From NCBI GenBank assembly GCA_043764415.1, contig JAYUKO010000162.1, forward strand, positions 1 to 53,805: a DNA stretch of 53,805 bases, in the 5' to 3' direction. Shown here piece after piece: positions 19,706 through 51,162 of the stretch. The DNA comes from Bdellovibrionales bacterium. GTDB lineage: Bacteria > Bdellovibrionota > Bdellovibrionia > Bdellovibrionales > JAGQZY01. A program made the position numbers and the translations under genes. Position 1 is the first letter of the stretch; every line of letters starts with the position of its first letter. The notes beneath the pieces are model-generated. The model saw nothing but the letters and a program-made list of their open reading frames with translations, ran no database searches and was not told the origin of the DNA.

Positions 19706-20950
19706 TTAGCCAACCTTATATTCTGAGAGAAGTTGGCGAAAGGCATCGGGAATAAGGTTAAAAAAATCGTTCTTCCGAACCAAATCGAATTTCTTTGTCT
19801 CCGTAAGAAACTCTCTCCAGAGTACTAGATCTTCGGGGCCCTGAATCCATTGGATCAAATTTTTGTAATGGTGGCCGGGAAGTTGGCTATATTTTTTGAT
19901 TAAGGCTTGTTTTATTTGTTGAGGAAGAATTTGCACCGATAAATGCTTGGGCGAATCGAGAAAATTGAGTCCCAGTGAAACCCCCTTGAGTGCGCACCAC
20001 TCAACAAGTTTTTCGATTTCAAAGATATTATAGATTTGGACTGTGCAGACATCCTTTAAAAAAGCGTTTGGGAGTTTTTCCTTGATCTGGTCAATCGTGG
20101 CGTTTGTTTTTTCCCACTTTGAGGGAGGGCGAATGTACTCGTTGATTTCGGCGTAACCATCGATACTGCAATCGATAACGACCTTTTTGAACTGAGCAGC
20201 CCGGTTGATAAAACGGTCATCAAAAAAGGAAAGATTTGTGCTCCATCGAACTGTCATGTTTTTTGCGGCGTCGGTTTCAATGGCGAAGTCGAGAAGAGAA
20301 AGGTGCGATTCGATGAGGGTGGGTTCCCCACCTAAAAAATAAACCTCTTCCGCAAAAGGAATTATAAGTTTTAGCTCGTTGTAGAAGTCAGGATACTTTA
20401 GCAGGTCACCCGTTGCTTTCGAATAAGCCAGCCCCGCCTCCCTTTCCTCCCAACCTTGCGAAATCGATTCCATCATCAGTGCTGTGCTGGTCACTGAATC
20501 ACACATACGGCATTTTAAGTTGCAATGACTGCCCAGCTTAATATCCCAGGAGAGGGGTTGAAAAGCGACTGAGTCCGTTTTTAATCTTTCCAACGTTTTT
20601 TCAAGGTAACGGTTTCCGTCGTGGAGTCTTTTACTTTGTAATCCCAAAGACTCCAGCTTCCAGCATAAGCTACAGCGTTCATCTTTAATGCCCTTTAACA
20701 AATTGCTGCGAAGAGACTGCATGTATTCCGAATGAAAGGCGTCTTTAAAAGTATGGCCTTTGAGAATATCCAAAGGCTCTCCCTGATTGTCGCAAACAAC
20801 GCCCTCTGAGTGGCAGCAGGCTTTGATTTTCCCATCCATTCGATTGCAAATATGGATAAAGGGCAACGTACAGAAGGTTTTTTCGTTTGCGACTAAAGAC
20901 ATCTCTGGATAATCATATTTTCTTTTTTTTTGAGCAATCGGAGATCGCAC
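19706..20950 (-). CDS. radical SAM protein, N-terminal twitch/SPASM-like Cys motif family (paralog 1)
   Basis: 'FCTLPFIHICNRMDGKIKACC', 'CSLC', core 'CNLKCRMC' and 'FLGGEPTL'. GTG start at 20950; alternative ATG at 20902. Confidence 0.85.
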   Translation of the reverse strand: MRSPIAQKKRKYDYPEMSLVANEKTFCTLPFIHICNRMDGKIKACCHSEGVVCDNQGEPLDILKGHTFKDAFHSEYMQSLRSNLLKGIKDERCSLCWKLESLGLQSKRLHDGNRYLEKTLERLKTDSVAFQPLSWDIKLGSHCNLKCRMCDSVTSTALMMESISQGWEEREAGLAYSKATGDLLKYPDFYNELKLIIPFAEEVYFLGGEPTLIESHLSLLDFAIETDAAKNMTVRWSTNLSFFDDRFINRAAQFKKVVIDCSIDGYAEINEYIRPPSKWEKTNATIDQIKEKLPNAFLKDVCTVQIYNIFEIEKLVEWCALKGVSLGLNFLDSPKHLSVQILPQQIKQALIKKYSQLPGHHYKNLIQWIQGPEDLVLWREFLTETKKFDLVRKNDFFNLIPDAFRQLLSEYKVG

Positions 20951-21021
20951 ATAATGCGAGGCGTTCTTGTTGATGGTTGGTGTAATAGGTAAGAGTCTGT
21001 ATCCTTTAAACAGGAAATAGC

Positions 21022-22278
21022 ATGCGATCCGAATTTTTAAAATTTACCAATGATTCCTTACGAAAATCCAAGGTCGTTTTTGTCGTCTGGGACACCTACG
21101 CCGACGGTCGTCGAGCAGATGCGCAGATGATTGAGCTGTGCTTCTCATTAATCCAGGTGCATCTGTACTTTATGATCGACGGGCAAGACCACAAAGTGCA
21201 CTTGCACCAAAGTGGCGGTCACACTTTTGAGAGAATCCGTAGTTTAGGCTACCAATATGTTGTCTGCCTCCCTCCAAATACGCTCATCAAATGCGAAGGC
21301 TCCGTGGAGGAGTTGCTTTCACAAGCTCAGCAAGAACCTGAGCAGTTTTGCTATGCTTATGAGGAGCTGCACAAACTCAGCGGAATGATTCTCCTAAATT
21401 TACAAAAATGCGAACCAGAGAAGATCGATGAGCTTCTTAAAACAAAGCGAGCTTCAAGCTTAGAGTTTGAGTTTCCGTGCAGCCGTGTGAAGCCACCGTC
21501 AAGAGTGATCTATTCGTATACAGCTGAGCTAGCAGCTTTTGGGTTGCAGCAGGTCATTGCCCAAGAACAGGCGACTCTCCAGGAACATTTGCAAGAGGGG
21601 TTTAATGTCTGCTTTGTTTTTAATACAGAATCTTACGATGATGTTGATAAATTGGGTTGTTTGTCCCGCACCCAGCACGTTGTGGGATTTGCATCTGGAT
21701 TTAAGCTAAATCAAATCGCCTGGAAAAATAAAGAGACCTGTCAGCGAGTGACTTTTATTGATCTCAACGAGAACTCGATAACATTGAAAGAAAAAATGTA
21801 TTTGCAATGGGATGGATACGACCTTCCAAGGTGGTTCCAGACGCACGTTGATAATTCGTCTGCGTTTTACGAAAAAACCCCAGACCACTTTCAAAAAAGC
21901 TGGGAGAGAGAACTTTCGTTGTGGGGAGGACAAGAGAAATTCGCAGAGCACTGGCGCTGGTTTAGAACCCTACCAGTCGATTTTCAAAAGATAGACTTAC
22001 TCTCCGAGCCAGAAAAGTTGAAATTAATACTGCAGCAAAGAACGAATACTTTATTATGGTACAGTAACCTTTGGAACAACGAATACGTGGCACATATCTA
22101 TGGAGTGAGGCAACTGGCCCAACAACAACTGCAGTGGCTAGAAAAAACCATGCCCAGTGAAACCCCCGTTGTCTTATTACAAGATCCAGTGCGAATAGGG
22201 TCAAAAAAAATTCACTTGAGTGGATATGATTCAAACACCGTTAAAAAGATTCTAAGAGAGCAACTTTCTCATTTTTAA
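21022..22278 (+). CDS. hypothetical protein; C-terminal domain shared with the 736-aa protein
   Basis: 418 aa. 'FIDLNENSITLKEKMYLQWDGYD...FQKSWERELSLWGG...LLWYSNLWN' parallels 'YFDVNQSMLEIKKEFYAHWDGKD...FSTKWEQELEIWGS...ALWYSNCFN' in ORF 24963-27173. Confidence 0.6.
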   Translation: MRSEFLKFTNDSLRKSKVVFVVWDTYADGRRADAQMIELCFSLIQVHLYFMIDGQDHKVHLHQSGGHTFERIRSLGYQYVVCLPPNTLIKCEGSVEELLSQAQQEPEQFCYAYEELHKLSGMILLNLQKCEPEKIDELLKTKRASSLEFEFPCSRVKPPSRVIYSYTAELAAFGLQQVIAQEQATLQEHLQEGFNVCFVFNTESYDDVDKLGCLSRTQHVVGFASGFKLNQIAWKNKETCQRVTFIDLNENSITLKEKMYLQWDGYDLPRWFQTHVDNSSAFYEKTPDHFQKSWERELSLWGGQEKFAEHWRWFRTLPVDFQKIDLLSEPEKLKLILQQRTNTLLWYSNLWNNEYVAHIYGVRQLAQQQLQWLEKTMPSETPVVLLQDPVRIGSKKIHLSGYDSNTVKKILREQLSHF

Positions 22279-23001
22279 ATACTGCAAATTAAACCAGCGA
22301 CGCAAGGGATGGGTTTTTTCGTAGGTGTGCAGCAATTTTTTTAAATAGTCTTTATGATGTTTTCCATGCAAACACTCCACTGTGATATGAAACCGATCTT
22401 CATCTGATTGATTCCACACCGAATGCCGATTCGACAGATCCACAAGGTAAAACCCGCCGGCTTTTATGGGTATGGTTCCGTAGCCTTCTATGCCAAAGTG
22501 GCAGTTTTTTGGAGCATTGAGAGCGATGGTCAAAGGGCCAAGACTTTTAGTGTCTCGGTCACGATGGGGCCCCACGTAACCACCAGGTTCCACGAGCATA
22601 AAGCGAATACGTTTGTATGTTTCGGCAGGGAATATACGTTTAAAATAATGAACAGAAACAGGACAGAGTTTTTCGATTTCAGTCCAGTCATAATTTGCCT
22701 CATCTTCCGACAAGTTGTAGTCAGAGTGACACATTGTTTTTTGAGCGGAGATGCCGTGGAGGCAGATGGATTTCCAACCCTTGTGAAGGTTGGCTTCGCG
22801 GTGCTCAACAAAAAGGTGTTTAATATTTTTCGCTTCTTGCAGAATTTCCTCAACAGGAAAATCCTCCATAAAAAACTCGAACCAGGGCATCTGCGACGGT
22901 GGCTTTAATTTAAGAGTCTCGTCAAACGGTAAGTCTACAAACGACGATCGAGACGGCTTTTTATTTAAAAAGAATTCCCCGACCTGTTCAATGGGAGTCA
23001 T
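22252..23001 (-). CDS. aspartyl/asparaginyl beta-hydroxylase-like (AspH/LpxO-type cupin) protein
   Basis: 'GWKSICLHG', 'RFMLVEPGGYVGPHRDRD', 'LTIALNAPKNCHFGIEG' and 'YLVDLSNRHSVWNQSDEDRFHI' follow the order and spacing of the Asp/Asn beta-hydroxylase fold. Confidence 0.6.
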   Translation of the reverse strand: MTPIEQVGEFFLNKKPSRSSFVDLPFDETLKLKPPSQMPWFEFFMEDFPVEEILQEAKNIKHLFVEHREANLHKGWKSICLHGISAQKTMCHSDYNLSEDEANYDWTEIEKLCPVSVHYFKRIFPAETYKRIRFMLVEPGGYVGPHRDRDTKSLGPLTIALNAPKNCHFGIEGYGTIPIKAGGFYLVDLSNRHSVWNQSDEDRFHITVECLHGKHHKDYLKKLLHTYEKTHPLRRWFNLQYLKMRKLLS

Positions 23002-23515
23002 TGAGTTCCCTTGTTAAATCAGCACAATAGAAAAAGACAAGCAGCAGACTTATTAAAAGATAAAACCACTCTAAATAAATAGATACATTTCCATATCTCA
23101 AAACCCCTAAACTGAAAGCCATAAGAAAAAAAAGACATATATAAACCACGTACGTGTGATTCGAGAAAATACACTTCAGTTTGTCCAACCCTCGGATTGT
23201 AAGTTGCGGAGCGAGACTAACCCAAATATGCACAAAAAAGTAGCTAAATTGAATCCAATTCGAGAAAGCAAAGGTTTCTTTCCAAACATAATAGAGGCTT
23301 ACGCAAGAAAATAGTCTCAACAAAAGGCTCGAGGGAAAAAGGGCCACCAAAAAATGACTCACCCAAAAAGAAGTCATCAGAAAACTGAGAATTTTCCAAT
23401 CGAAAGACAATTGCGCCAGATTTCTCCAGTTAACTACGGTGGCCAAGTGCGCATGCCCCGCCAACAGAGAAAAGTAAACCGATAAAAATAAATTGGCTTT
23501 GGTTTTAAATTCCAT
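22988..23515 (-). CDS. hypothetical polytopic membrane protein
   Basis: 175 aa, about 5 hydrophobic helices. Its ends overlap both neighbours (11 and 14 nt). Confidence 0.55.
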   Translation of the reverse strand: MEFKTKANLFLSVYFSLLAGHAHLATVVNWRNLAQLSFDWKILSFLMTSFWVSHFLVALFPSSLLLRLFSCVSLYYVWKETFAFSNWIQFSYFFVHIWVSLAPQLTIRGLDKLKCIFSNHTYVVYICLFFLMAFSLGVLRYGNVSIYLEWFYLLISLLLVFFYCADLTRELNDSH

Positions 23516-24503
23516 ATTTAGGAAATCTTTCTAGCCAAGCAAAGGGCGGTAGCCGAAGTATATGTTTAAAAATTATAAAAGCATTTTTCTGACGGTCGAA
23601 GGGTGAGACCAAGAAAACGAGGGCCACGGGAGCTGCCATGGCTGAAAAGTTGACGCCAAAAAATAAAAAAGTCCCCAAATGAAAGACAAGGCGCAAGACG
23701 CCGAAGGCTGGATGCAAGTTAAGCCGAAAGACAAAATAAAAAGATACAAGGTGAATCCAAATCGTTGCCAGATAAGAAACAAAGCTGAGCCAAGGATATT
23801 TGTAAAATGCATCACGCCAAGGGGCAAACTGGTGATAGAAAATCGCCTCTCTTGCCGAAATGTTCGTGAGAATCCACTGATCCAATTGGCACTGAAGAGT
23901 GGACTCGACGGCGCAGCGAAGAATGCTTGTCACCTTCCACAGACCACTCATGGTATAAAACGTACAGATTATGAGTTGGATAAACCAAACAGAAAGCAAA
24001 ATTTTATGGCGATGGATTCTTTTCCTCGTCGCGAGCGGGCCCGGGCGTGAAAGTGGCAGCAAGCAGAGGAGCATCGACATCCAAAGAAAAGCGTGATGAT
24101 TATTACTAAAATGTCCGTCAGAATTAATGGTAGCGATCATAAAAAAAACGGAAAGAGCCTGAATCGAACGAAAGAAGCGGTTTTCAAAGAAAAAAAACGA
24201 TAAAAGCGAGCTCGTGATCCACAACCAGAGAATCGGAGGCACGAAATAGTGCAACTTTTCGGGTCCTAAATTGCCAAATACCCAAAGCGGTCTATAAAAG
24301 ATTTTATCAGCGTAAAGATCAATAAAGTTATTATACGAGCTCACAGCGATAACAAAAGAGTAGCCGTAAAATGCACGGATCAGAAAAAGTGATTTCAAAA
24401 AGTTTGTAGAGTGGGCAGCGAAAAGACCCTCATGAGGATAAAAAAAAGCTTGGCCTCTTAATGATCGCACAATTCTTTTAAGATACTTATTTGCGCGATT
24501 CAT
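23505..24503 (-). CDS. HTTM-like (VKGC/SdpB-like) polytopic membrane protein, copy 1
   Basis: 332 aa, multi-TM. 'LFLIRAFYGYSFV', 'YTMSGLWKV' and 'VFHLGTFLFFGVNF'. Clearly homologous to ORF 36751-37536. The family label is by pattern only. Confidence 0.5.
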   Translation of the reverse strand: MNRANKYLKRIVRSLRGQAFFYPHEGLFAAHSTNFLKSLFLIRAFYGYSFVIAVSSYNNFIDLYADKIFYRPLWVFGNLGPEKLHYFVPPILWLWITSSLLSFFFFENRFFRSIQALSVFFMIATINSDGHFSNNHHAFLWMSMLLCLLPLSRPGPLATRKRIHRHKILLSVWFIQLIICTFYTMSGLWKVTSILRCAVESTLQCQLDQWILTNISAREAIFYHQFAPWRDAFYKYPWLSFVSYLATIWIHLVSFYFVFRLNLHPAFGVLRLVFHLGTFLFFGVNFSAMAAPVALVFLVSPFDRQKNAFIIFKHILRLPPFAWLERFPKYGI

Positions 24504-24969
24504 GTTTTCCTAAAAACGTCTCTTTGATGAGCTCATTTTTCCAAAAAAAGTCTATCGGGTTAAAGGTCTGCTCACTAATTTCCCAAACGACCACTTCGTG
24601 CGGATGATCTGCGGTAAAAAGCCGATCAAACTCAGAGATGACATAGGTTCGCGAACGGTCGTCGGCCGCATAGTCTTGTAATTTTTTGGCAAAGTCATAA
24701 ATTTTTATTCTGGGAAATGATTTTTCTACGAAAACTGATCCTTTTTTTGGGGGATCGAACTTCGTCGTATCTATTTGATGAATATAGATTTCATGGTTTA
24801 CAAGATATTTATCTGGCTGCGTATGAAAGATTCTCCAAGTGTAAGCGGGATATAGATTAATGCTGCCAGTGGCGAGTTCAAAAAATAGGGAGAAAATCAA
24901 TTGGCCGGTAACAAACAAAATCATAGAATATTTAATCTTTTTAAGTTCTTTCATGAAATGGCCTAACAA
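24487..24969 (-). CDS. small single-TM protein preceding HTTM-like gene (SdpA-position protein), copy 1
   Basis: 160 aa with an N-terminal TM helix (MILFVTGQLIFSLFF). 17-nt overlap with the downstream HTTM-like gene. Confidence 0.5.
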   Translation of the reverse strand: MLGHFMKELKKIKYSMILFVTGQLIFSLFFELATGSINLYPAYTWRIFHTQPDKYLVNHEIYIHQIDTTKFDPPKKGSVFVEKSFPRIKIYDFAKKLQDYAADDRSRTYVISEFDRLFTADHPHEVVVWEISEQTFNPIDFFWKNELIKETFLGKHESRK

Positions 24970-27173
24970 AAGACATCATTGATATCGACACCGAAGCCAG
25001 GAACTTTAAAGCCCTCAACCACGTCTTCGCCGTAGACGGTAATTTTTAAGTTATTTGTCTTCGAGAGTCGAAAAAGTGAATTCATAAAGATAACGCCTGA
25101 GGTACGCAATGCGTCCATGTTCCAATGGAGCATAGCCAAGCTTGGCGTGTAGTTGAAGCAGTTGCTGTACCAAAGGGCGATGTGCAGATTTTTATATTTT
25201 TCTAATTCGGCCATCAAAACATCGGCGGAATTCACGATATTCGTATGGATGAAGGTTTTTTTAAGGGGCTTAATCTGGTTGAATGTTTTCAAAAAAAGAG
25301 CTTCGCTTCCCCAAATTTCCAACTCTTGTTCCCATTTGGTGGAAAACTGCTCTCTATCCACAGTCAAAAGTTTATTTTCTAAAATCTCGGGCCGACGATT
25401 TTCAAGATCCCTCCAAAAAGAGGAAAAGTCTTTTCCATCCCAGTGAGCATAGAATTCTTTTTTAATCTCGAGCATACTTTGATTGACGTCAAAATATATA
25501 AACTGGGCGTTTTCATTGAGCTGGTGCCTTTGAGTGAGATGCATATCCATTTGTCCAGCAGGCAAGCCCAAATACAAATCAAATTTTTTGATACGTCCTT
25601 CTTGGTAGGGGGAGCGAGCTTGTTCCGTGTTAAATAAGAAGATTTTCTTATCGAGCCCGTAGGCTTCCATATGAAGTTCTTCAAAAACGTCCTCTTGGTG
25701 ATGGCTGAGCTGGTTCTTTGCTCTCAAAGTTTCCAAAGGTTGCTGAAAGTCGTCAAATCTTTCGATAAGGGCCGCTTGGTTTTGTTCGGGGTATAAAAAC
25801 TGTTTTTTTGCTCGTAGGTCGCTAGGAAAATTGACCACTTCGTAATTTGCACACAAAGCGGACCGTATCCAATTCCAACCAAAAATTTGCGGATTGAAAA
25901 TCTTCTCGCCAGGTCCTTTGCGCAAAAACATTGGCGTGTAATCATCGTGCACATTTTCAGGGCTCCGATCGACCACAGGTAAGTTTTGTGAGTGAGTGGG
26001 GCCTCCAAAATGCGGACGACCCAATTTTTCCCATAATTCTACATTAATAAAAAACGCCTGCGGATGCAGTCCAAACCATCGTTCGCCGCGATCAAGAAGG
26101 TGTCCGACTAAAAAAACATTTGTTGAAAGCGCTTTTAAAAACGTTCGAGCTCGCGAATAGAACTGATCTTTCAAGATTGTCCCTGGCGTACAAACAAACG
26201 CCCACTGAGTGCCCATATCAGAGCAACGAGTCAGTAGATCTGAAAGCTGAACTCCCGAAGTGAGGCGATGGTGTCGATTTGCCTTAAGTCGCATAAAATG
26301 CTCAGTGATATTTGTGCAATGATTAAAAAGCGTAGGGTTTGAAATTTCGGAATTGTATTTCCAAAGGATATTGGCGAAAGCGGTAGGGTCTGATTTTTTT
26401 TCGCTAACAAGCGGAGCTTCCACAGCCAACTGTCGACGCTGACCACTGACACTTTCGGCGATTTTATTATAATATTTAGCGCCATAGCGTCCATGCAGAA
26501 TAAGATGCACGCGGGTTTCTTTCGAAAAGTTCCATACGCCGTGCTGGTTGGAGATATCGACGGCATACCCGCTGCCGGGTTCAAAAGGGACAGTCCCCCA
26601 ATTTTTAAAAACCCAGTAGCATGAGCTGGGCATGTTTAAAGCAATGTTCAGTGGACCTAAAGACTTATTATGGTCATCGCGATCTTGATGGAAGTGAATT
26701 CGACCGCCGGGCTCAAGATACATAAAGCGAACTCTGTAAAACTTCTCGAAATACCCAGTATCCAAAAGCTCCTGCAAAAACCGCTTTGCCTCTGGACATC
26801 GATTGACGATCTCTGTCCACCGATACGGCGTCTCAAGTTCTGATGCGTAGCCATATCGATCAGACGACAGCGTTTTATCTGAGTCAATGCCGTGCAAGCA
26901 CAGGCTCTTCCAACCGTAATTGTCTTTTGAGCGATGGCTCACGGCCTGAGGCTCGAGCGCCAAGGCTTCGGATAACATTTGCTGATGGTCAAAGGCGGGC
27001 AGAGGAAGCTTTAAAAACGGAATGTGCAATTTCTTGTGAAGTTCTTGACCAGAAATTCCAGCGGCAAAAAGCTTTACACGGCCCCTTATAAAGGCCTGTG
27101 TCGTAGAGTTTAGCTTTGAGTAGGTATCCACCACGAATTGTTCGTTGGCGGAATCATTCAGAATTTCTGGCAT
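24963..27173 (-). CDS. multidomain protein: N-terminal AspH/LpxO-type cupin domain + unknown middle + C-terminal Rossmann-like domain
   Basis: 736 aa. 'GWKSLCLHG', 'RFMYLEPGGRIHFHQDRD', 'LNIALNMPSSCYWVF' and 'YAVDISNQHGVWNFSKETRVHLI' are paralogous to ORF 22252-23001. The C-terminal domain is paralogous to ORF 21022-22278. Confidence 0.65.
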   Translation of the reverse strand: MPEILNDSANEQFVVDTYSKLNSTTQAFIRGRVKLFAAGISGQELHKKLHIPFLKLPLPAFDHQQMLSEALALEPQAVSHRSKDNYGWKSLCLHGIDSDKTLSSDRYGYASELETPYRWTEIVNRCPEAKRFLQELLDTGYFEKFYRVRFMYLEPGGRIHFHQDRDDHNKSLGPLNIALNMPSSCYWVFKNWGTVPFEPGSGYAVDISNQHGVWNFSKETRVHLILHGRYGAKYYNKIAESVSGQRRQLAVEAPLVSEKKSDPTAFANILWKYNSEISNPTLFNHCTNITEHFMRLKANRHHRLTSGVQLSDLLTRCSDMGTQWAFVCTPGTILKDQFYSRARTFLKALSTNVFLVGHLLDRGERWFGLHPQAFFINVELWEKLGRPHFGGPTHSQNLPVVDRSPENVHDDYTPMFLRKGPGEKIFNPQIFGWNWIRSALCANYEVVNFPSDLRAKKQFLYPEQNQAALIERFDDFQQPLETLRAKNQLSHHQEDVFEELHMEAYGLDKKIFLFNTEQARSPYQEGRIKKFDLYLGLPAGQMDMHLTQRHQLNENAQFIYFDVNQSMLEIKKEFYAHWDGKDFSSFWRDLENRRPEILENKLLTVDREQFSTKWEQELEIWGSEALFLKTFNQIKPLKKTFIHTNIVNSADVLMAELEKYKNLHIALWYSNCFNYTPSLAMLHWNMDALRTSGVIFMNSLFRLSKTNNLKITVYGEDVVEGFKVPGFGVDINDVFC

Positions 27174-42719: not shown

Positions 42720-43885
42720 TGAAAATAGCACTTTCGTTTTTTGCAATAGCGCTAACCCCAATTGTATTGTTTCTTTCATTGGAATTGTCGGTACGCATGT
42801 TCAACGTAATCTCAACTGCAAACCGTAAAGTTGAAGCGCAAAATCATGGCTGTGAACTCCGGACCGGCGAAAACTATCGCTTGTTGGTCACCGACAGCGG
42901 TCAAAAGAAAACAAAATTTTCCCAACACCAATTTGAGCTCAAAAGTTTGGTTAAGAACTACGATTTTTTCGCCACGGACGATGTGGGCTACGTTTTTCAC
43001 AAAGAGAAGCAAAGCTTTCGCCAGCAAGCAAGGATCGCTGGAACAGACGAATTATTGTATGATGTGACTTATGGTTTTGGTGAAGGCGGACGACGAAAAG
43101 TTCCCGGGGGAGAAAATATTTCGGCCCAGTCGCATTTGGCGATCAGTGGGTGCTCCGTGGTTTTTGGAGAGGGCCTCGATGACAACCAGACACTTCCGGC
43201 ATTTATGCAAAAACACTTTCAAGAGACCCAGGTTTACAACCTAGGGCGAGTTGGTGGTTCGGTTGTTGATGCAGTCTCAACCTTGCAAACGACCAATATG
43301 TGGAAAAATATTAGTCCTTCCAATGGACTTTTACTCGTCTACCACGCTCAACACACCCATGTTCCTCGATTCCTAGGAGCCATGATGACCATTGGAGCTT
43401 GGAGGGGACAAGCTGCGTTCCTAGAGGAAAGTAAATCTTCGGGGGAGTTTAAATTTGGAGGGGTATATTACCGCGACAAGCTTGCTTGGACGCGGCTAAG
43501 TCAATGGGCGGTAAAATCTGAATTGTTAAAAATGATCGCCTTTGATTGGCCGCCACAAACAGACTCCGCCCTCGACAGCTATACCCGTGCGTTAGTTTTT
43601 TTGCGGAAGGAGTACCAGCGAATGACTTCCCAAGACAATCCCATGGTCGTTTATTTGAAGCCCGGGGATAAGGAATCATGTAAAATTATTCCATTTTTAG
43701 AAAAACACCAAATTTACTATCTGGACTATACAAACTGGCACCTAACCGACTATGCAACGGAACAATTAATCATAAAATATGACGGCCACCCCACCGAAGA
43801 GTACAACAAAATTTTTTCAATTCAGTTGTCGCAGGACTTAAAATCCCAAAAAAATCAAAACAAAATCAGGCGTAAATTTTTCTGA
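42719..43885 (+). CDS. membrane-anchored SGNH/GDSL-like hydrolase/acyltransferase family protein (copy 3)
   Basis: N-terminal TM plus 'ELSVRMF', 'LAISGCSVVFGEGLDDNQTLP' and C-terminal 'KYDGHPTEEYNKIF'. TAATG overlap with the upstream radical SAM gene. Confidence 0.55.
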   Translation: MKIALSFFAIALTPIVLFLSLELSVRMFNVISTANRKVEAQNHGCELRTGENYRLLVTDSGQKKTKFSQHQFELKSLVKNYDFFATDDVGYVFHKEKQSFRQQARIAGTDELLYDVTYGFGEGGRRKVPGGENISAQSHLAISGCSVVFGEGLDDNQTLPAFMQKHFQETQVYNLGRVGGSVVDAVSTLQTTNMWKNISPSNGLLLVYHAQHTHVPRFLGAMMTIGAWRGQAAFLEESKSSGEFKFGGVYYRDKLAWTRLSQWAVKSELLKMIAFDWPPQTDSALDSYTRALVFLRKEYQRMTSQDNPMVVYLKPGDKESCKIIPFLEKHQIYYLDYTNWHLTDYATEQLIIKYDGHPTEEYNKIFSIQLSQDLKSQKNQNKIRRKFF

Positions 43886-43895: not shown

Positions 43896-44045
43896 CTAAA
43901 AGATAGTGTAGATGAACGGGGTGGCGACCGTCCCACTGCCTAAGTAGAGAAGTGCTGAAAGTGAAAGGAGAACTAGAAAAAATGGAATCATCCACCATTT
44001 TTTATTTTCCACAGCAAACTGCCAAAGTTCCAAAACTAGCTTCAT
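43896..44045 (-). CDS. small membrane protein, SxtK/'DUF5989'-like (not in ORF track, 49 aa)
   Basis: Manual translation gives MKLVLELWQFAVENKKWWMIPFFLVLLSLSALLYLGSGTVATPFIYTIF*. Its ATG (44045-44043) overlaps the carbamoyltransferase TGA (ATGA). From memory, the sequence type (ELWxF..xxKKWWxxP, one TM, ...APFIYTxF end) matches the ~50-aa proteins that accompany carbamoyltransferase/SxtJ pairs. Confidence 0.6.
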   Translation of the reverse strand: MKLVLELWQFAVENKKWWMIPFFLVLLSLSALLYLGSGTVATPFIYTIF

Positions 44046-45859: not shown

Positions 45860-45865
45860 CTCGCC

Positions 45866-46255
45866 TCAAAACATTCGATCGAAGCGTTGATTATTGCGGC
45901 TCTTATGCCACCCATGGGTCGGAGTTCTCGATCGCACAAGACGTAAACACAAACCCAGGGGCGTAATGATGAAAAAATAAAAAAGAATTAAAAAAACGGG
46001 CTGAATCAACCAAGCTAAGCCAATTCCGACATAAAACCAAACGGTGTTCAAAAAAGACGAGTAGCTTTGGTGGAAAACAGTTGGGATAAACAGTAAGCAA
46101 GTGAGTCGCCACGGGTGAGGAGCAAGGCAAAAGATAACGGTTGATAAAATGGCAGCAAAATAAGAAAAACTTTTCGGCGATGGACGCGGCGAATTTTTGA
46201 GGCGACGAAAATTAAATCGAGTCCACATAGAGTTCTGATCGGGTCGAAGAACCAT
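45866..46255 (-). CDS. SxtJ-like small membrane protein
   Basis: 129 aa with two or three TM helices. 'KSFSYFAAILSTVIF' and 'FIITPLGLCLRLV' resemble the SxtJ-type proteins found beside carbamoyltransferases (recognised from memory). Alternative ATG at 46228. Confidence 0.55.
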   Translation of the reverse strand: MVLRPDQNSMWTRFNFRRLKNSPRPSPKSFSYFAAILSTVIFCLAPHPWRLTCLLFIPTVFHQSYSSFLNTVWFYVGIGLAWLIQPVFLILFYFFIITPLGLCLRLVRSRTPTHGWHKSRNNQRFDRMF

Positions 46256-47630
46256 CTTGGTTTAAAAGCTCACCCATTTCGGGGAAAACTGAAGCGAACG
46301 ACGTCCCCCTTATGGAATCCATACGCGCGATGTACTCACGGAATTGCGGCATTCTGTTGGACCAGTCTTCGGATTCCATAAACTTCAGCATTCCTTCAAG
46401 GCGTTTAATTCCATAATCGCTATTTACGAATTCCTGGTCATTTCGGTAATTTTTCAGGAGCCATGAATAAAATCCTTCGTATTTGCAGCGAATTTTTCGT
46501 TTAAACTCTTTCGGAAAAACTTTTACGTTCAAATGAGCGGGGTGATAGACAAAATGGTAATTAATAAGCCCAGCTCCAAGAGGCCAAGCATTTATTTTTT
46601 TAAAATTTTGTTCAAGTTTCCAGCGGATAAAGTCGGGTAAGTAATACATGTTCAGCATCTGCACAGCGCAAGCGATGGTGACTTCCACATGGTCTGGAGT
46701 TTCATCGAGCAGACGCAAATGTTTTTCGATGGTTTCCCAGTTAGCGGGATAACGAATGTAGGAATTCATTTCGTGGACGCTATCGATACTGAAGTGAAAC
46801 CGGACACGGCGAAATTTTTCCCACAACGTGAACAGTCTTTCGGGAAGTTCAATGCCGTTGCTGTTGTAACGAAGCTCAATATTTTTTGCATAGCCTCTTC
46901 GTACACACTCCTCGAGAAGCTCGTAATGCTCTTCGATGATGGTGCTTTCGCCGCCAGCAAAGTACAATTGTTGCATATGCGGAATTTGCTCGTAGAGCTC
47001 TTCCCAAAAAATGGGATTGTCGCGATGCCAATCGTAACTGGCGCCATCCACGCGACCGCTATTATCCCAAACCATCACTTGCTTCAGCTCAGCATTTTGG
47101 ATCTGTGGGTAAAGCTTTTTCCAATCAGAAACCCATAGCGAACTGTCGTGAGGTGAACACATGATACATTTCAAATTACATTTTGTACCGAGGCGTAAAT
47201 CCACATAATAAATTCGCGCGGGCACAGACCCGTCTTCCGAGGTCTCATCGATCAATTGTTGTAAATCAATGCGCGAACTCCAGTATTCGGTCTCCCAATT
47301 TCTTTTCGAGCGATGGCCTGCAGCCTCCTCTTTAAAACACTTCGTACACGACGCAGGGACTTCACCAGCAAGCATTTTGAGTCGCACATCACGCATGTAT
47401 CCGTTGTTCCAGGCTTCTAAAAGGGGAGTATGGTTCAGGTTGGCGGGTTTTCCGTTATCGTTTTTTAAAATACCCACTTCTCCTCCCCAAATTTTGTCGT
47501 TGGTGGCTCCGGCTGAAGACGCGTTGGCCGTGCAGCACACGCGCATGTGCCCGTTGGGGCGCGTAGAGAGGTGAATCCACGGTAGGGCGCAGTAGGTTTT
47601 ACTGGGGGCAACGAAAGTTCTTTTATCCAT
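46212..47630 (-). CDS. radical SAM protein, N-terminal twitch-like family (paralog 7)
   Basis: 'YCALPWIHLSTRPNGHMRVCC', 'CTKC', 'CNLKCIMC' and 'FAGGESTI'. I prefer ATG at 47630 (14 aa before the first Cys, as in the paralogs) to TTG at 47687. Confidence 0.85.
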   Translation of the reverse strand: MDKRTFVAPSKTYCALPWIHLSTRPNGHMRVCCTANASSAGATNDKIWGGEVGILKNDNGKPANLNHTPLLEAWNNGYMRDVRLKMLAGEVPASCTKCFKEEAAGHRSKRNWETEYWSSRIDLQQLIDETSEDGSVPARIYYVDLRLGTKCNLKCIMCSPHDSSLWVSDWKKLYPQIQNAELKQVMVWDNSGRVDGASYDWHRDNPIFWEELYEQIPHMQQLYFAGGESTIIEEHYELLEECVRRGYAKNIELRYNSNGIELPERLFTLWEKFRRVRFHFSIDSVHEMNSYIRYPANWETIEKHLRLLDETPDHVEVTIACAVQMLNMYYLPDFIRWKLEQNFKKINAWPLGAGLINYHFVYHPAHLNVKVFPKEFKRKIRCKYEGFYSWLLKNYRNDQEFVNSDYGIKRLEGMLKFMESEDWSNRMPQFREYIARMDSIRGTSFASVFPEMGELLNQDGSSTRSELYVDSI

Positions 47631-47748: not shown

Positions 47749-48912
47749 ATGGAAGCGAGCGAGTACAAAACCAAAGTCATCAACCAAGAAGCCATGCATT
47801 TTTGTTTAAATGTGGTGGAATTTTTTGAGGCTTTGCCAGACGACCGAGAGTTTTTTAGAAGAGCTGCTCTTGATGGTCTTACATTTTGCCAATCGCTGCA
47901 AGAGGTTGGGTTTTACATATCAAGTTGTAAGGAATTGGCACTCCTTCATCCAAGCGTTGATAAAGAGCAGTTTTTAAATGTGGCTCACCGAGTTGGATCC
48001 GACACGCGACATTTTTTTGCCTTCTTACTAACAACAAAGCTCTTGGTAGAAAAAAAAGATTTCCAATCATGGGATCAGTTTTTGAGCGCCACAATGGTTG
48101 CTCTGCAGACCGAGGAAACCATGGCCGACTATTTGACAACGGTGCGGCACCTTACAGAGAAATTAAATTTCACACAATGGCCCGATTTTTTTACAATGGT
48201 AAAGCGTCTCAAGGAGCAGTCTTCACGCCAGGAGTCCGACGTCTTTTCTGCCGTGCGCCACGCCATTCAGTACTTCGACGATGCGGAATCGATCAAAGGG
48301 GTATTTCGAATTCTTGCAGAGACGCCGCAGTTTTCTGGAGCTTTTGCCTATGGGCAGCTCGACAGCAAAAAGTGGCTCATCGAGGAAGCGCAAAAAGTGT
48401 GGGGCCCTAGTTGGGGGACCGTTTTCGTTCTTGCGGGCTGGATTGGCGTACTGCCTCGGATGATCTACGACAAAAAAATCACAACCACAAAAATATGCTC
48501 TTTTGACATCGACGAGAGTGCGAATAGAGCCTCTGAATTTCTCAATCAAACAGAAGTGCAAAACGACTGGTCTTTTAAATCCTCCTCGCGAGACATTACG
48601 ACGATGCAGTATCCAACGACGTACCAGGTGCTTCGAAAAGATGGAAGTTCTTGCGAGCTTGTTGCATTGCCAGATGTCGTCATAAATACAAGCTGCGAAC
48701 ACATCCAAGATATCAAATCATGGTGGTGGCAAATTCCCTTCGGCACGAAGGTGATTTTGCAATCGAACGACGGGTTTCACATTCCTGAACATGTCGCTTG
48801 TTTCAAAAGTCTCGAAGACTTTGCGAAGACAATGAAACTGTCTCGAACAGATTACATGGGAGAAAAAGCTTTGCCGGAGTTCAATCGTTTTATGTTGATT
48901 GGTGTAAAGTAG
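47749..48912 (+). CDS. hypothetical protein with C-terminal class I methyltransferase-like Rossmann pattern
   Basis: 387 aa. 'VFVLAGWIGVL', 'ICSFDIDESA' and 'DVVINTSCEHIQD' resemble motifs I/II/IV. The N-terminal ~200 aa are unknown. Confidence 0.4.
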   Translation: MEASEYKTKVINQEAMHFCLNVVEFFEALPDDREFFRRAALDGLTFCQSLQEVGFYISSCKELALLHPSVDKEQFLNVAHRVGSDTRHFFAFLLTTKLLVEKKDFQSWDQFLSATMVALQTEETMADYLTTVRHLTEKLNFTQWPDFFTMVKRLKEQSSRQESDVFSAVRHAIQYFDDAESIKGVFRILAETPQFSGAFAYGQLDSKKWLIEEAQKVWGPSWGTVFVLAGWIGVLPRMIYDKKITTTKICSFDIDESANRASEFLNQTEVQNDWSFKSSSRDITTMQYPTTYQVLRKDGSSCELVALPDVVINTSCEHIQDIKSWWWQIPFGTKVILQSNDGFHIPEHVACFKSLEDFAKTMKLSRTDYMGEKALPEFNRFMLIGVK

Positions 48913-49978
48913 TTTCTTTTCGAGCCTTAAAATCATGGGAACAATAACAACTCTTATGGGGACAAATTACAGGAGTCGTTGGCCACCGCACAGAGTCTAA
49001 GTTTTCTACCTTTTCAAGCTGGTCAACCCGTCGCCACGAACCTAACGGTGGGCTCACTCCGCACATAACAGATCTTTTAATGTCTCCGTTTTGTTCAAGG
49101 TAAAGAGTGTCGATACCAACATAGCAGTTCCAACCTTGCCAATTATTTAAATTATTTGTTGTTAAAAACGAGTTCGACATCATTCCCGATGCCTTTTTCG
49201 TATTTCGTTTAAAGAACTGATTTTTTAATTCTTTGGCTCGTTTCCCTGTCAACAGAGTGAGCCAGGGCAACTTGTTGGCGTGAATTGAATTCGATTTCAT
49301 CCATGCAAGTTGCTCATCAAGATAGGGCCAGTCTTGATTCACTTTTGCATCCGGCGCGGCTTCTTGAGCAAACTTCGACGACGGTAGGAGTGTGAGTTTT
49401 TGTAAGGAAATTGTGTTCGCTTTACTAAATTTTTTAAAATAAGCGTGGGCAGCGACGCAGTCATCCCATTTTTTCGAATACATCAAAAGGAGGAGGCAAA
49501 CCGACACTCCCTTGCGAGAAAGAATGTTTGAAACCTCAGTTAAATGCTTAGGGTCGGCAAATTCTGGGTGATAACTTAAGGTCACATGATGAAAGTATTC
49601 CGCATGTCGTTCCCACCAATCGAGGGTGCGAATGCCGTTGGTGACCAGCATCACTTTATTTTTTGTTTGATGAATGGCATCGATGAGTCCCTCGAAGTCT
49701 TTCCAAAGCGTCACTTCCCCTCCGAGAAGTTCAAAAAAGATGGTCTTTTTTTTGTGCAGAGTTTTAAAGATCCTGTCGATTGTATTTACGGTTTTTACAG
49801 CCTCGCCAAGCGTGGGCCAAGAGAAACTCCCATCGTGGCATTCTTTGGCACAATAAGAGCATTTGTAAGTGCAATGATTGCCTAAGTTCCAATTCACAAA
49901 TAGCAATGGATTTTCAAACGTGGTTTGGTTGGTAAGAGATGGCCCGAATCCATCAAATTTTTCAAAAGCTGTGGACAT
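48890..49978 (-). CDS. radical SAM protein with C-terminal twitch/SPASM-like domain (type B, copy 2)
   Basis: 'CTYKCSYC', 'LLGGEVTL' and 'GWNCYVGIDTLYLEQNGDIKRSVMC...CPHKSCYC'. Paralogous to ORF 40505-41650. Confidence 0.8.
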   Translation of the reverse strand: MSTAFEKFDGFGPSLTNQTTFENPLLFVNWNLGNHCTYKCSYCAKECHDGSFSWPTLGEAVKTVNTIDRIFKTLHKKKTIFFELLGGEVTLWKDFEGLIDAIHQTKNKVMLVTNGIRTLDWWERHAEYFHHVTLSYHPEFADPKHLTEVSNILSRKGVSVCLLLLMYSKKWDDCVAAHAYFKKFSKANTISLQKLTLLPSSKFAQEAAPDAKVNQDWPYLDEQLAWMKSNSIHANKLPWLTLLTGKRAKELKNQFFKRNTKKASGMMSNSFLTTNNLNNWQGWNCYVGIDTLYLEQNGDIKRSVMCGVSPPLGSWRRVDQLEKVENLDSVRWPTTPVICPHKSCYCSHDFKARKETTLHQST

Positions 49979-50031
49979 GCCCTAAATCTATTGTTGTTCT
50001 ACTTTGTCGGCTAGTTTATTCTCGAAGGCAT

Positions 50032-51162
50032 ATGGCACTGGGCGGCAACTCACGATTCTGTTCTCTTCCTTTTGTTCGACGAGTTGTTGCGCCGTCGGGC
50101 ATGCTCCGGCCCTGTTGTGATTTTTCGGCACCGTACAGCTACAGCGACGAGGATTTTAAAAGTTTGCAAGTCGCGTTATTAGCAAATATTCCCCATCCCC
50201 ACTGCAAGGTCTGCTGGGAAAAAGAAGCGGTAGGTGTGGAGTCCCTGCGCTCCGAAAAAAGCTATGATAATTTAAATCGAATTCGAGTTCTCGAGTTGAA
50301 CTTATCAAACCTCTGTAATCTGAAATGTAGAATGTGCGGGTCAGATTCCAGCAGCGCGTGGATTGAGGATGAGATTTTCCTTAGGGAAAAAATCATCGAT
50401 GATCCGTTTCGGCCAAAACAAATTGAAAAGCTTGAGCGGGCTTTTAATACTAAAAAAGATCTTTTTGATTTTTTAAATTCTTTAAATTTGCAGGATCTCG
50501 AACACATTACATTTTTTGGCGGTGAGCCTTTTCTTCAGCCACTCTTTGCTGAGGTGCTGGAGTATTTAATCCATAGTAAAAAAACCAAAATTTCGCTTCG
50601 TGTGACAACAAATGGGACAATTGTTTTAGATAAACATTTGTCCCTACTAAAACAGTTTGAGCGCGTTGATTACCGACTGAGCATAGAGGCTGCGGGGAGT
50701 TTGTATAAATACATCCGGGGCGGAGAAAAGTTTTCCTTAGCAGACATCGAAAAAAATCTCCACAATATCAAGAAGACCACCCACTTTCAGGTCTCTGCAA
50801 ACTGCGCCCTTAGCGCATACAGCGCCTTTGGAATTGCAGATCTTTACATTTGGCTGAACGAAAATCTTGGTGGCGCCGTTGGAAAGCTGCATTGGTATGA
50901 TGTTTTTGACCCCCCGTACTTAGCGCCAAAAGTGCTTCCTTTAGCAATCCGCTCGCGAGCACGAGAGCATAATATTGAGATTCTTAAAAAGAATGGGCTT
51001 TTATCAAAACACCTAGAACAAGAAGTAAGTAGATTACTGCAAATGCAAATACCCACGAGGCCCGATGAAACTGCGCAATTTTTAAAATTTACTCGGGTAC
51101 TGGATGAAAAAAGGAATGAAAACTTTTTTTCGTTCTTACCAAAGGATATCGATTTTATTTAA
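50032..51162 (+). CDS. radical SAM protein, N-terminal twitch-like family (paralog 8)
   Basis: 'FCSLPFVRRVVAPSGMLRPCC', 'CKVC', 'CNLKCRMC' and 'FFGGEPFL'. I prefer ATG at 50032 (GAAGG upstream) to the ORF-track start at 49939, which overlaps the divergent gene. Confidence 0.85.
   Translation: MALGGNSRFCSLPFVRRVVAPSGMLRPCCDFSAPYSYSDEDFKSLQVALLANIPHPHCKVCWEKEAVGVESLRSEKSYDNLNRIRVLELNLSNLCNLKCRMCGSDSSSAWIEDEIFLREKIIDDPFRPKQIEKLERAFNTKKDLFDFLNSLNLQDLEHITFFGGEPFLQPLFAEVLEYLIHSKKTKISLRVTTNGTIVLDKHLSLLKQFERVDYRLSIEAAGSLYKYIRGGEKFSLADIEKNLHNIKKTTHFQVSANCALSAYSAFGIADLYIWLNENLGGAVGKLHWYDVFDPPYLAPKVLPLAIRSRAREHNIEILKKNGLLSKHLEQEVSRLLQMQIPTRPDETAQFLKFTRVLDEKRNENFFSFLPKDIDFI

Follow-up and report, generated by a model that had tools for sequence, protein, structure and literature searches.

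An island of radical SAM genes in Bdellovibrionales, grown at a fixed chromosomal site around four conserved core genes and sharing core and cassettes with large aquatic phages

The stretch of DNA considered here (the window) comprises 53,805 nt from a metagenome-assembled genome (MAG) of a Bdellovibrionales bacterium (GCA_043764415.1, contig JAYUKO010000162.1, positions 1 to 53,805, forward strand). It carries a flexible region of ~35 kb (~16.2–52.6 kb), placed between an M16 peptidase gene on the left and a tadA-like deaminase gene on the right. The ~33 genes between these flanks include eleven which encode radical S-adenosylmethionine (SAM) proteins. An earlier note, made from the sequence alone, had drawn the region at 19706–51162; it is in fact larger. 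The interval is an expanded flexible genomic island built around a conserved core of four genes, which encode the radical SAM proteins rS_A and rS_B, a radical SAM protein of the N-twitch family, and a protein with a methyltransferase (MTase) fold (Table 1). Long open reading frames (ORFs) of the window were translated and scanned against Pfam and NCBIfam, with permissive Pfam scans (E up to 10) for some of the proteins left unannotated. L-numbers (L001, L018, L260, and so on) denote comparison loci, and K-numbers (K2, K25, and K35) denote protein clusters of the arrays.

Each of the eleven ORFs which the earlier note assigned to the radical SAM superfamily contains exactly one CxxxCxxC motif and matches Pfam Radical_SAM. 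The gathering score is exceeded in ten of them, and rS_B reaches 28.5 against the required 29.5 bits. The GGEP-type SAM motif, previously ascribed to all eleven, is canonical in eight and occurs as a variant in the other three (GDP, GGES, and GGEV). Three families are represented: the N-twitch proteins, rS_A with a divergent paralog (48890–49978), and rS_B. Eight proteins match NF033640 of NCBIfam (N_Twi_rSAM, 'twitch domain-containing radical SAM protein') over its full length (model positions ~1–397) at 234–431 bits, where the curated cut-off is 170 bits; the remaining three score 20–38 bits and are not members. Although the eight N-twitch paralogs are mutually only 25–34% identical, all have a Cys-rich auxiliary-cluster (SPASM/twitch-like) segment placed N-terminal to the CxxxCxxC core. 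This segment matches Pfam SPASM at residues ~7–117 in six of the eight. Four of these matches reach the gathering score of 21.5, and those in 33194–34408 (21.4) and 46212–47630 (20.8) lie just under it; no Pfam SPASM match was obtained in 19706–20950 or 50032–51162. The alignment further revealed a conserved C10, a CC pair, and a CxxC motif. The CC pair is missing in the paralog 28109–29374, which may therefore not bind an auxiliary cluster.

NF033640 is a named but uncharacterized subfamily, and no member with a known substrate was found in the literature searched or among solved structures. Eight divergent paralogs in one locus represent an expansion of the family and not a single member. 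Both rS_A and rS_B fall below every curated NCBIfam cut-off, and searches of the PDB returned no close solved structure for any of the three families. The nearest solved relative of rS_A is the anaerobic sulfatase-maturating enzyme (anSME), which aligns with the N-terminal core only. The known cofactor pathways with paired radical SAM enzymes (PQQ, mycofactocin, heme d1, MoaA, QueE, and others) were considered and rejected, their NCBIfam matches all being far under cut-off.

Gene-by-gene comparison of loci revealed that nearly everything in the island is variable save rS_A, rS_B, the N-twitch protein of the 46212 type and, in this lineage, the MTase-fold protein. The comparison is clearest with L260, a contig of 838 kb in which rS_A has 77% identity to that of the window. 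Its left flank is that of the window (bioF, a fused bioD-bioA, YceI, MscL, and the M16 peptidase), and so is its right flank, where the tadA-like deaminase is followed in L260 by S21, dnaG, and rpoD. Between these flanks L260 encodes only rS_A, rS_B, the MTase-fold protein, one N-twitch protein, and a small Ser/Thr/Pro-rich secreted protein. An intermediate state is found in L018, which has both flanks and ~12 genes between them. The same site thus holds ~33 genes in the window, ~12 in L018, and 4–5 in L260. From the comparison with L260 and L018, it follows that the island consists of a conserved module of 4–5 genes and ~30 kb of accreted cassettes.

The added cassettes comprise seven further N-twitch paralogs, the second rS_A, the amidinotransferase with a pyridoxal phosphate (PLP)-fold-like protein, cupin dioxygenases, and a carbamoyltransferase with small membrane partners. 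They also contribute membrane-anchored SGNH-like and polytopic membrane proteins as well as a membrane protein resembling aminopropyltransferases. One of these combinations, amidinotransferase with N-twitch radical SAM and PLP-like proteins, recurs in L006, L021, and the viral loci L051, L053, and L054. Two genes near the core were examined as possible partners and rejected. The M16 peptidase, considered as a PqqF-like partner, is a gene of the conserved flank, and in other genomes the module has a different location. A 64-aa ORF adjoining rS_A in L260, considered as a precursor, encodes a basic protein which is not precursor-like.

Such an arrangement could in principle arise by chance or decaying aggregation, a recombination hot spot having gathered unrelated or non-functional genes which share no pathway. 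The genes lie in 14 short blocks of alternating orientation, as the earlier note had counted (~14), the content differs between relatives, and no regulator is present, all of which would fit an aggregate. However, all island ORFs are intact and closely packed, and many are translationally coupled. Moreover, the nearest relative, with 97% identity in the core, retains the island, from at least 30.4 kb on to the right, with 79–97% protein identity and two exceptions, one SGNH-like gene which is replaced (46%) and a GH114 gene which is missing. The earlier note had reasoned that homologs never found together elsewhere would speak for chance; they are co-localized in dozens of genomes and viral contigs. 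Chance aggregation is contradicted by this co-conservation of the core and of sub-cassettes in Bdellovibrionota and viral contigs, and its probability is next to negligible. The observation is far beyond chance. A mobile element or prophage was likewise rejected: neither a tRNA nor an Rfam match nor an integrase or transposase domain was found in the window, whose sole repeats are conserved coding motifs of paralogs. The same holds for a plasmid origin, as the core N-twitch protein has no plasmid match.

Table 1. Genes of the island, in order along the window, and the evidence for each assignment (TM, transmembrane; AGAT is an amidinotransferase)
Feature	Position	Strand	Evidence
804-aa membrane protein: 6 TM, polyamine-aminopropyltransferase-like core, 6 TM	17289..19703	-	TM profile; Methyltransf_31 E 3e-8; PDB 1uir E 3.9e-5
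N-twitch radical SAM paralog 1	19706..20950	-	NF033640 319 bits; Radical_SAM
418-aa protein without Pfam/NCBIfam match	21022..22278	+	C-terminal domain common with 24963–27173 (BLASTP E 3e-11); ortholog in L021
AspH/LpxO-type cupin dioxygenase	22252..23001	-	Asp_Arg_Hydrox E 9e-14
175-aa protein, 3 TM segments	22988..23515	-	hydropathy; no family match
Polytopic membrane protein, paralog of 36751–37536	23505..24503	-	BLASTP E 4e-5; no Pfam match
160-aa single-TM protein	24487..24969	-	hydropathy; no family match
736-aa protein: N-terminal AspH-type cupin and two unassigned domains	24963..27173	-	Asp_Arg_Hydrox E 7e-12; cluster K25, also in viral arrays
KdoO-like dioxygenase, family level only	27253..28137	+	Kdo_hydroxy 34 bits vs 25
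N-twitch radical SAM paralog 2, without CC pair	28109..29374	-	NF033640 256 bits; alignment
Amidinotransferase, StrB1/SxtG/AGAT type	29355..30437	-	PDB StrB1 1bwd E 2.6e-35; SxtG 6u1r E 1.6e-32; AGAT 5e-25
186-aa protein, co-inherited with amidinotransferase	30434..30994	-	ortholog adjoins amidinotransferase in L006; no family match
PLP-fold-like protein, family K2	31033..31995	+	K2 in 45 viral and 4 Bdellovibrionales loci; commonest non-radical-SAM partner in viral arrays
N-twitch radical SAM paralog 3	31996..33192	+	NF033640 287 bits
N-twitch radical SAM paralog 4	33194..34408	+	NF033640 252 bits
N-twitch radical SAM paralog 5	34370..35689	-	NF033640 377 bits
Membrane-anchored SGNH-like protein	35784..36809	+	N-terminal TM, GCS and DHP motifs; NF047474 E 0.0014
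Polytopic membrane protein	36751..37536	-	4 homologs in 5.8e9 proteins; AlphaFold pLDDT 56
141-aa single-TM protein	37511..37936	-	ortholog in L002
Membrane-anchored SGNH-like protein	37933..39180	-	N-terminal TM, GGS...DxxxH motifs; Lipase_GDSL_2 E 0.27
N-twitch radical SAM paralog 6	39264..40478	+	NF033640 349 bits; at most 49% identity in viral loci
Core: rS_A, radical SAM and C-terminal 4-Cys domain	40505..41650	+	63–97% identity across Bdellovibrionota and viral contigs
Core: rS_B, radical SAM and C-terminal Cys-rich (SPASM-like) region	41643..42719	+	found with rS_A in 40/49 Bdellovibrionota and 65/85 marine or viral loci
Membrane-anchored SGNH-like protein	42719..43885	+	N-terminal TM, GCS and DGHP motifs; cluster K35
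49-aa DUF5989 membrane peptide, carbamoyltransferase partner	43896..44045	-	PF19451 on identical gene in L001; downstream of 44042–45859
NodU/CmcH-type carbamoyltransferase	44042..45859	-	Carbam_trans_N E 1e-85, Carbam_trans_C E 1e-67; NodU model 151 bits, far under equivalog cut-off
129-aa two-TM protein, SxtJ-like by position only	45866..46255	-	kept with carbamoyltransferase in L001–L004; no hidden Markov model (HMM) match
Core: N-twitch radical SAM, conserved ortholog	46212..47630	-	NF033640 431 bits; median 58% in 74 viral loci
Core: MTase-fold protein, helical N-domain and predicted class I methyltransferase fold	47749..48912	+	AlphaFold pLDDT 95.4; Foldseek SgvM, NodS, TehB
Divergent rS_A paralog	48890..49978	-	Radical_SAM; clusters with rS_A
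N-twitch radical SAM paralog 8	50032..51162	+	NF033640 234 bits
Ser/Thr/Pro/Asp-rich protein of 115 aa, secreted or anchored, conserved beside the core	51159..51506	-	119-aa counterpart in L260 (15027–15386)

The protein rS_A is extremely conserved: a search at E≤1e-5 gave 4,868 database proteins, of which the best 120 are all at least 64% identical to it. In data with one genome per species rS_A is almost restricted to Bdellovibrionota (Bdellovibrionales, Bacteriovoracaceae, Halobacteriovoraceae, and Oligoflexia), and a cultured carrier exists in Bdellovibrio sp. HCB2-146 (contig NZ_JBLEQP010000001, ~1.873–1.894 Mb). Orthologs of the core N-twitch protein, at 66–97% identity, are found in 28 species-level genomes, all of them Bdellovibrionales or Pseudobdellovibrionaceae MAGs, which places the window on the chromosome of a predatory bacterium. 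Among 49 Bdellovibrionota loci, rS_B was found within 10 kb of rS_A in 40 and an N-twitch protein also in 40, and each locus has between 1 and 10 radical SAM genes of the three families. A family of 228-aa proteins named u228 (L182, 7717–8403), which is not encoded in the window, lies between the core N-twitch gene and rS_A or a family 2 glycosyltransferase (GT2) in 21 of the 49 loci and in some viral contigs. In another Bdellovibrionales locus, L262 (10001–12235), the rS_A-rS_B pair stands at the end of a purine-biosynthesis operon, beginning 12 nt past purF, and the next ~9 kb contain no N-twitch gene.

Outside Bdellovibrionota, rS_A was found in a few contigs labelled as candidate phyla radiation (CPR) and in contigs of marine MAGs, one or more of the latter being the same record as an IMG/VR viral contig. 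Two rS_A arrays of 10 and 4 radical SAM genes (L143 and L163) come from MAGs with the labels Parcubacteria and Dojkabacteria; provided that these two loci are correctly binned, CPR episymbionts also have the module.

Further analysis revealed that the core and several of the cassettes are common to large aquatic phages. At least 186 IMG/VR contigs encode rS_A, and the 80 which were fetched have GC contents of 31–40% and lengths of up to 342 kb. Together with five metagenome contigs they make up 85 marine or viral loci, in which rS_A is present throughout (85/85, median 65% identity to the window protein), the core N-twitch protein in 74 (median 58%), and rS_B in 65. Between bacteria and phages rS_A is 63–68% identical. 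The viral arrays hold a median of 7 and a maximum of 12 radical SAM genes in 21 kb. Their partners in common with the window are the K2 PLP-like protein, the amidinotransferase, AspH-type cupins, the 24963-type protein, and the family of the MTase-fold protein, and further ones are QueC-like, SDR-like, nitroreductase, TauD, desaturase-like, and B12-type radical SAM proteins. The flanks are phage-like (thyA, DHFR, HNH, and a DUF2201 protein with 43% identity to proteins of jumbo phages), and some arrays adjoin large proteins which are 40–78% identical to cyanomyophage virion or baseplate proteins. In the records of isolated phages (50,697) rS_A was not found; arrays of N-twitch genes do occur in isolated jumbo phages, with at least four in Vibrio phage K566.

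Multi-radical-SAM arrays of phages were noted in 2010, 2017, and 2020 without explanation (PMC2853527, PMC5332604, PMC7029224). In the first of these reports, an interchangeable cluster of five radical SAM genes and an amidinotransferase was swapped between the phages CP220 and CPt10, and its role was not assigned (Timms et al., 2010; PMC2853527). A T4-like marine viral genome with 12 radical SAM genes was described later (Nishimura et al.; PMC5332604). In two pelagimyophages, 'radical SAM cassettes' distinguish the host-recognition clusters, which are hypervariable and in which the cassettes stand together with glycosyltransferases (Zaragoza-Solas et al.; PMC7029224). The Campylobacter phage module, of 5–6 short radical SAM genes with amidinotransferase and aminotransferase next to tail genes, is a more distant analogue. 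In Campylobacter phage vB_CjeM_WX1 (L265, 109957–121688) the space between baseplate and tail genes is occupied by six short radical SAM genes with genes of an amidinotransferase, a PAP2 phosphatase, and a class I/II aminotransferase, and this is the module which Timms et al. found swapped.

The island resembles these phage modules (CP220/CPt10, T4-like marine, and pelagimyophage) in several respects. They too have many radical SAM genes, are hypervariable and interchangeable between close relatives, are placed near tail or baseplate genes, and often include an amidinotransferase and a class I/II aminotransferase-like protein. The radical SAM proteins of the Campylobacter phages are short (266–319 aa), however, and only distantly related to those of the window, which is moreover a locus on a bacterial chromosome with membrane-anchored proteins and a carbamoyltransferase cassette. 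Three points are new: that the island has grown from a conserved core at a fixed site, that a single uncharacterized radical SAM family dominates it, and that predatory bacteria and large phages have core and cassettes in common. The phage arrays noted since 2010 are thereby tied to a bacterial counterpart, whose core sits at a defined site in predatory Bdellovibrionota and is found in every state from a four-gene minimum to an island of more than 30 genes. The cultured carrier HCB2-146 offers a route to the genetics and biochemistry of three uncharacterized radical SAM families and several partner families without a Pfam entry. No paper giving these radical SAM families a substrate or describing the Bdellovibrionota locus was found, nor any on a characterized N-terminal-twitch radical SAM protein or an expansion of radical SAM genes in Bdellovibrio, although absence from the literature searched is not proof of absence. 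The earlier note recognized no described pathway, and in agreement with this the genomes, phages, plasmids, and literature searched yielded no syntenic cluster to which a product has been assigned.

The high conservation of rS_A across bacteria and phages would fit a universal substrate, and one reading is that rS_A and rS_B act on a nucleotide, producing a modified base or nucleoside or a viperin-like analogue for takeover of the host or prey. The best matches of rS_A and its paralog in a defence library are prokaryotic viperins (E 3e-11 and 3e-14). In L262, purF is immediately followed by the rS_A-rS_B pair, and viral arrays contain QueC-like proteins and lie near thyA and DHFR. The viperin matches are confined to the N-terminal ~100 residues (profile positions ~2–100 of 257), and the NCBIfam viperin model gives 20–51 bits where 180 are needed. 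Like the MoaA matches, they cover the generic cluster-binding segment and fall far under the family cut-offs. Nucleic-acid-binding, transglycosylase, or kinase partners are lacking, anchored tailoring enzymes and cupins of lipid A/Kdo type would make no sense for modification of DNA or RNA, and the known 7-deazaguanine pathway of Campylobacter phages is assigned to other genes. Chemistry on nucleotides is thus very unlikely. A defence system was also considered and rejected, as PADLOC gave partial viperin-core matches only.

The remaining assignments of the earlier note bear on the kind of chemistry which the island could perform. The amidinotransferase stands, with StrB1 as its nearest solved relative and the catalytic HC-T-D-RR C-terminal tail aligned; orthologs were found in the two bacterial and three viral loci named above for its cassette. 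The KdoO-like dioxygenase also holds, at family level: the NCBIfam KdoO model gives 25 bits against 300, and for KdoO and LpxO only Pfam family matches pass, so the equivalog level is not reached. Of three proposed AspH/LpxO-type cupins, Pfam finds two (22252–23001 and the N-terminus of 24963–27173). The carbamoyltransferase, proposed together with SxtJ- and SxtK-like partners, is well supported along with DUF5989; the SxtJ-like call for 45866–46255 has size, two TM segments, and position in its favour and no HMM match. The PLP fold is borderline, resting on an Aminotran_1_2 match of a viral member of K2 (19.9 against 19.7 bits). For the three anchored SGNH-like proteins, block I (GxS) and block V (DxxH) were read in the sequence and accompany weak HMM matches (E 0.0014 to 0.27). 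A resemblance of two membrane modules to HTTM proteins was not confirmed: the polytopic protein gave no Pfam match at E up to 10, the alignment holds five sequences, the predicted local distance difference test (pLDDT) is 56, and Foldseek returned no match below E = 2.

The MTase-like call holds for the core protein 47749–48912. AlphaFold predicts with pLDDT 95 a class I SAM-dependent methyltransferase fold for it. Foldseek matches SgvM, NodS, and TehB at probability 1.0, with TM-scores of up to 0.65 on the target. Residues G230-W231 (glycine-rich motif I) and D253 (the acidic residue after strand 2) are invariant, as are C316, E317, H318, H348, and C351 across 55 homologs. The top structural match is SgvM, a Zn-dependent keto-acid C-methyltransferase. 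The invariant Cys, His, and Glu residues suggest a metal site. Homologs are also found in uncultured Caudovirales (TM-score 0.90). No Pfam domain is present among the 120 homologs listed, and profile searches of PDB sequences with this family and with u228 returned nothing.

The scans confirmed the earlier statement that no polyketide synthase (PKS), nonribosomal peptide synthetase (NRPS), glycosyltransferase, transporter, or regulator is encoded in the island, and no sugar-nucleotide enzyme domain was found in any island protein by Pfam and NCBIfam. This holds for the window; for the system as a whole the stated lack of glycosyltransferases misleads, since many orthologous loci have a GT2 gene immediately after rS_A. 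Such a gene was found within 10 kb of rS_A in 14 of the 49 Bdellovibrionota loci, directly downstream or overlapping in at least eight, and the GT2 adjoining rS_A in HCB2-146 is confirmed by Pfam. The minimal locus L182 consists of an N-twitch gene, u228, and GT2, then rS_A and rS_B in divergent orientation. One ORF fuses rS_A to GT2, which may be a frameshift artefact. In Poseidonocella sedimentorum, two N-twitch and two B12-type radical SAM genes occur with an NDP-hexose 2,3-dehydratase (E 3.5e-119) and a family 1 glycosyltransferase (GT1). This locus was the only one used of its kind, as other high-GC N-twitch loci outside Bdellovibrionota were too noisy under simple ORF calling. Moreover, cyanophage S-SCSM2R has an amidinotransferase, a radical SAM protein, and a DegT-like aminotransferase in one operon with five glycosyltransferases.

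From these observations we tentatively favor, with somewhat less than even confidence and from genomic context, the reading that the island serves to tailor a sugar-type unit, and that its product is a strain-variable decoration of a cell-surface glycoconjugate. A sugar is proposed because of the contexts with GT2, with NDP-hexose dehydratase and GT1, and with five glycosyltransferases, and because of the enzymes of StrB1, NodU, and KdoO/LpxO type; StrB1 acts on an inosamine phosphate. A surface destination is proposed because the island encodes three anchored SGNH-like and two polytopic membrane proteins, its content varies at a fixed locus, some phage arrays adjoin homologs of cyanomyophage structural or baseplate proteins, and the pelagimyophage cassettes belong to host-recognition clusters (PMC7029224). 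The earlier note had offered a guanidinylated and carbamoylated small molecule and remodelling of the envelope as separate hypotheses. Both are compatible with the data, and they are probably two ends of one pathway with sugar-type chemistry and a surface destination.

In the favored scheme the substrate would be a sugar-type unit, nucleotide-activated or lipid-linked. In the cytoplasm, the auxiliary-cluster radical SAM enzymes would perform C–H chemistry on it (epimerization, oxidation, deoxygenation, or C–C bond formation), followed by methylation by the MTase-fold protein. An amine would next be installed by the PLP-like enzyme and turned into a guanidine by the amidinotransferase. Hydroxylation by the cupins and O-carbamoylation by the NodU-type enzyme would come after this. 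Following export, the anchored SGNH-like proteins and their membrane partners would carry out O-acylation or de-acylation. The transferases and the exporter would be encoded outside the window. SGNH-type enzymes of the PatA/PatB, AlgI/J/X, and OatA systems acylate or de-acylate exported polymers.

Several features of the island are those of surface-glycan loci. O-antigen and capsule loci and the lipopolysaccharide ('LPS') gene clusters of cyanophages also have variable content at a fixed site between conserved flanks. Candidates of KdoO-like, LpxO/AspH-type, and carbamoyl- or acyl-transfer type are present in the window, GT2 occurs in orthologous loci, and the cyanophage cassette of amidinotransferase and radical SAM protein stands among five glycosyltransferases. 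Unlike O-antigen and capsule loci, the window has no glycosyltransferase, NDP-sugar pathway, Wzx/Wzy, or export by ABC (ATP-binding cassette) or synthase systems. To our knowledge, dominance of radical SAM genes is not a property of any characterized O-antigen or capsule locus.

A number of results weigh against a sugar-type surface decoration. By Pfam and NCBIfam, the window contains no glycosyltransferase, NDP-sugar synthesis gene, flippase, polymerase, or exporter, and about half of the island proteins (~15) have no detectable family. Permissive Pfam scans of ten unannotated proteins (nine of the window and u228 of L182) gave noise only. The GT2 of Bdellovibrionales has no homolog in the 85 marine or viral array loci, and no glycosyltransferase is present among 20 recurrent array families scanned with Pfam. 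Sugar genes are also absent from the surroundings of the minimal core in L260 and of the bare rS_A-rS_B pairs (L262, after purF, and L034). The identity of rS_A between phages and bacteria would be more in keeping with a universal substrate than with a glycan that varies. None of the three radical SAM families has a demonstrated substrate. SPASM/twitch radical SAM enzymes are best known for maturation of peptides and proteins.

The amidinotransferase also leads to a different reading, in which the product would be a diffusible secondary metabolite which the predator and the phages would direct at prey or competitors: a soluble compound with guanidino and carbamoyl groups, derived from an aminocyclitol, amino sugar, or amino acid and resembling aminoglycosides or guanidine toxins. 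The nearest relatives of the enzyme are StrB1 of streptomycin and SxtG of saxitoxin biosynthesis, and with the biosynthetic sets of such compounds (StrB1, BtrN, and TobZ; SxtG, SxtI, SxtJ, and SxtK) the window shares an amidinotransferase, the carbamoyltransferase Pfam family with DUF5989 as in the sxt-type trios, twitch-type radical SAM proteins, and a PLP-like protein. Twitch-type enzymes include BtrN, whose twitch domain is C-terminal, whereas that of the N-twitch proteins is N-terminal. Trios of carbamoyltransferase and SxtJ- and SxtK-type proteins are widespread outside sxt clusters, and in the window the 129-aa protein upstream of the carbamoyltransferase has no SxtJ HMM match. The top fold match of the core MTase-fold protein, the keto-acid C-methyltransferase SgvM, would suit a metabolite, as would the viral arrays, in which QueC-like, SDR-like, nitroreductase, TauD, and B12-type radical SAM proteins occur and no glycosyltransferase was detected. 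The authors of the S-SCSM2R genome named the amidinotransferase, radical SAM, and PLP enzyme genes, equivalent to those of the island, 'antibiotic synthesis genes' and left their purpose unclear (PMC12801897).

A scaffold enzyme for such a metabolite is lacking, however. Unlike aminoglycoside and saxitoxin clusters, the window contains no 2-deoxy-scyllo-inosose synthase, inositol-phosphate synthase, SxtA-type PKS, NRPS, or glycosyltransferase, and the starter of saxitoxin has no counterpart there in the form of a PKS, an acyl carrier protein, or an AONS architecture. No exporter, resistance gene, or regulator was found. The three anchored SGNH-like proteins with their polytopic partners point instead to an envelope-bound substrate, and a gene content which differs between species at a single locus is seen more typically with surface structures. 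We therefore regard a diffusible metabolite as unlikely; if it were the product, it would represent a new class of natural products.

The cysteine motifs of the radical SAM proteins bring in another possibility, namely that these enzymes and the AspH-type hydroxylases modify proteins or peptides encoded elsewhere, such as adhesion fibers, Ser/Thr/Pro-rich secreted proteins, or receptor-binding and virion proteins of phages. All three radical SAM families have auxiliary-cluster motifs and share the common core with the SPASM/twitch maturases (anSME, PqqE, MftC, and the sactisynthases), to which they give weak and partial HMM matches. The protein-modifying anSME is the nearest solved relative of rS_A, in the N-terminal core only, and AspH represents a family of protein hydroxylases. 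Some phage arrays adjoin homologs of virion structural or baseplate proteins and tail genes, glycosyltransferases were not detected in viral arrays, and a small secreted Ser/Thr/Pro-rich protein is conserved beside the core. This protein (51159–51506) could be a carrier or substrate, or it could be a mere neighbor.

Of the hypotheses in the earlier note this one is the least supported. Intergenic gaps in the island do not exceed ~120 nt, so there is no room for an unannotated gene of a precursor, and the small island ORFs encode TM proteins or the Ser/Thr/Pro-rich protein. No recognition element (RRE) or PqqD domain of systems for peptides made on ribosomes and modified after translation (RiPP systems), leader peptidase, peptide transporter, or export ABC was found; the adjoining M16 peptidase is part of the flank, and the HTTM claim is unsupported. 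In contrast to the RiPP maturases, the order of domains is inverted in the N-twitch proteins, and the matches to maturase models lie far under cut-offs and cover the core alone. Amidinotransferase, PLP-like, and NodU-type proteins belong to enzyme families of small molecules and sugars, and the contexts with GT2, NDP-hexose dehydratase, and GT1 point to sugars as well. Modification of proteins or peptides is unlikely as the function of the island, though the phage arrays beside virion structural genes leave it some probability.

The shared occurrence of core and cassettes has also led us to consider a pathway type previously unrecognized, passed horizontally among attackers of bacteria such as Bdellovibrionota, large phages, and possibly CPR episymbionts. 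Its product would be a hypervariable, radically modified molecule, made without a canonical scaffold synthase and acting directly in the interaction with host or prey. Such a molecule may decorate adhesion or receptor-binding structures or may serve as a takeover metabolite, and the island would then not be an ordinary glycan-tailoring locus. To this proposal we assign a low probability. Should the favored reading of a surface decoration be true, it would bear on how predators and phages vary their own surfaces or those of their hosts.

Other genes at the edges of the island deserve mention. The gene of the 804-aa membrane protein (17289–19703) lies outside the interval first drawn. It starts 3 nt past the stop codon of the first N-twitch gene, to which it is translationally coupled, and it is missing from the minimal locus L260. 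In L261, a SpeE-type gene is found two genes from the core N-twitch gene. Together, the 804-aa protein and this gene may indicate a recurring link of aminopropyl or polyamine chemistry with the core. At the right edge, the gene of a GH114-family lipoprotein (endo-alpha-1,4-polygalactosaminidase type; 51595–52515, minus strand) is inserted between the tadA-like deaminase and the island; L001, L003, and L004 have this gene, and L002 and L260 lack it. In the left flank, the biotin operon includes a BioD-BioA fusion of 654 aa (9614–11578, plus strand; AAA_26 and Aminotran_3), and the same fusion is encoded in L260.

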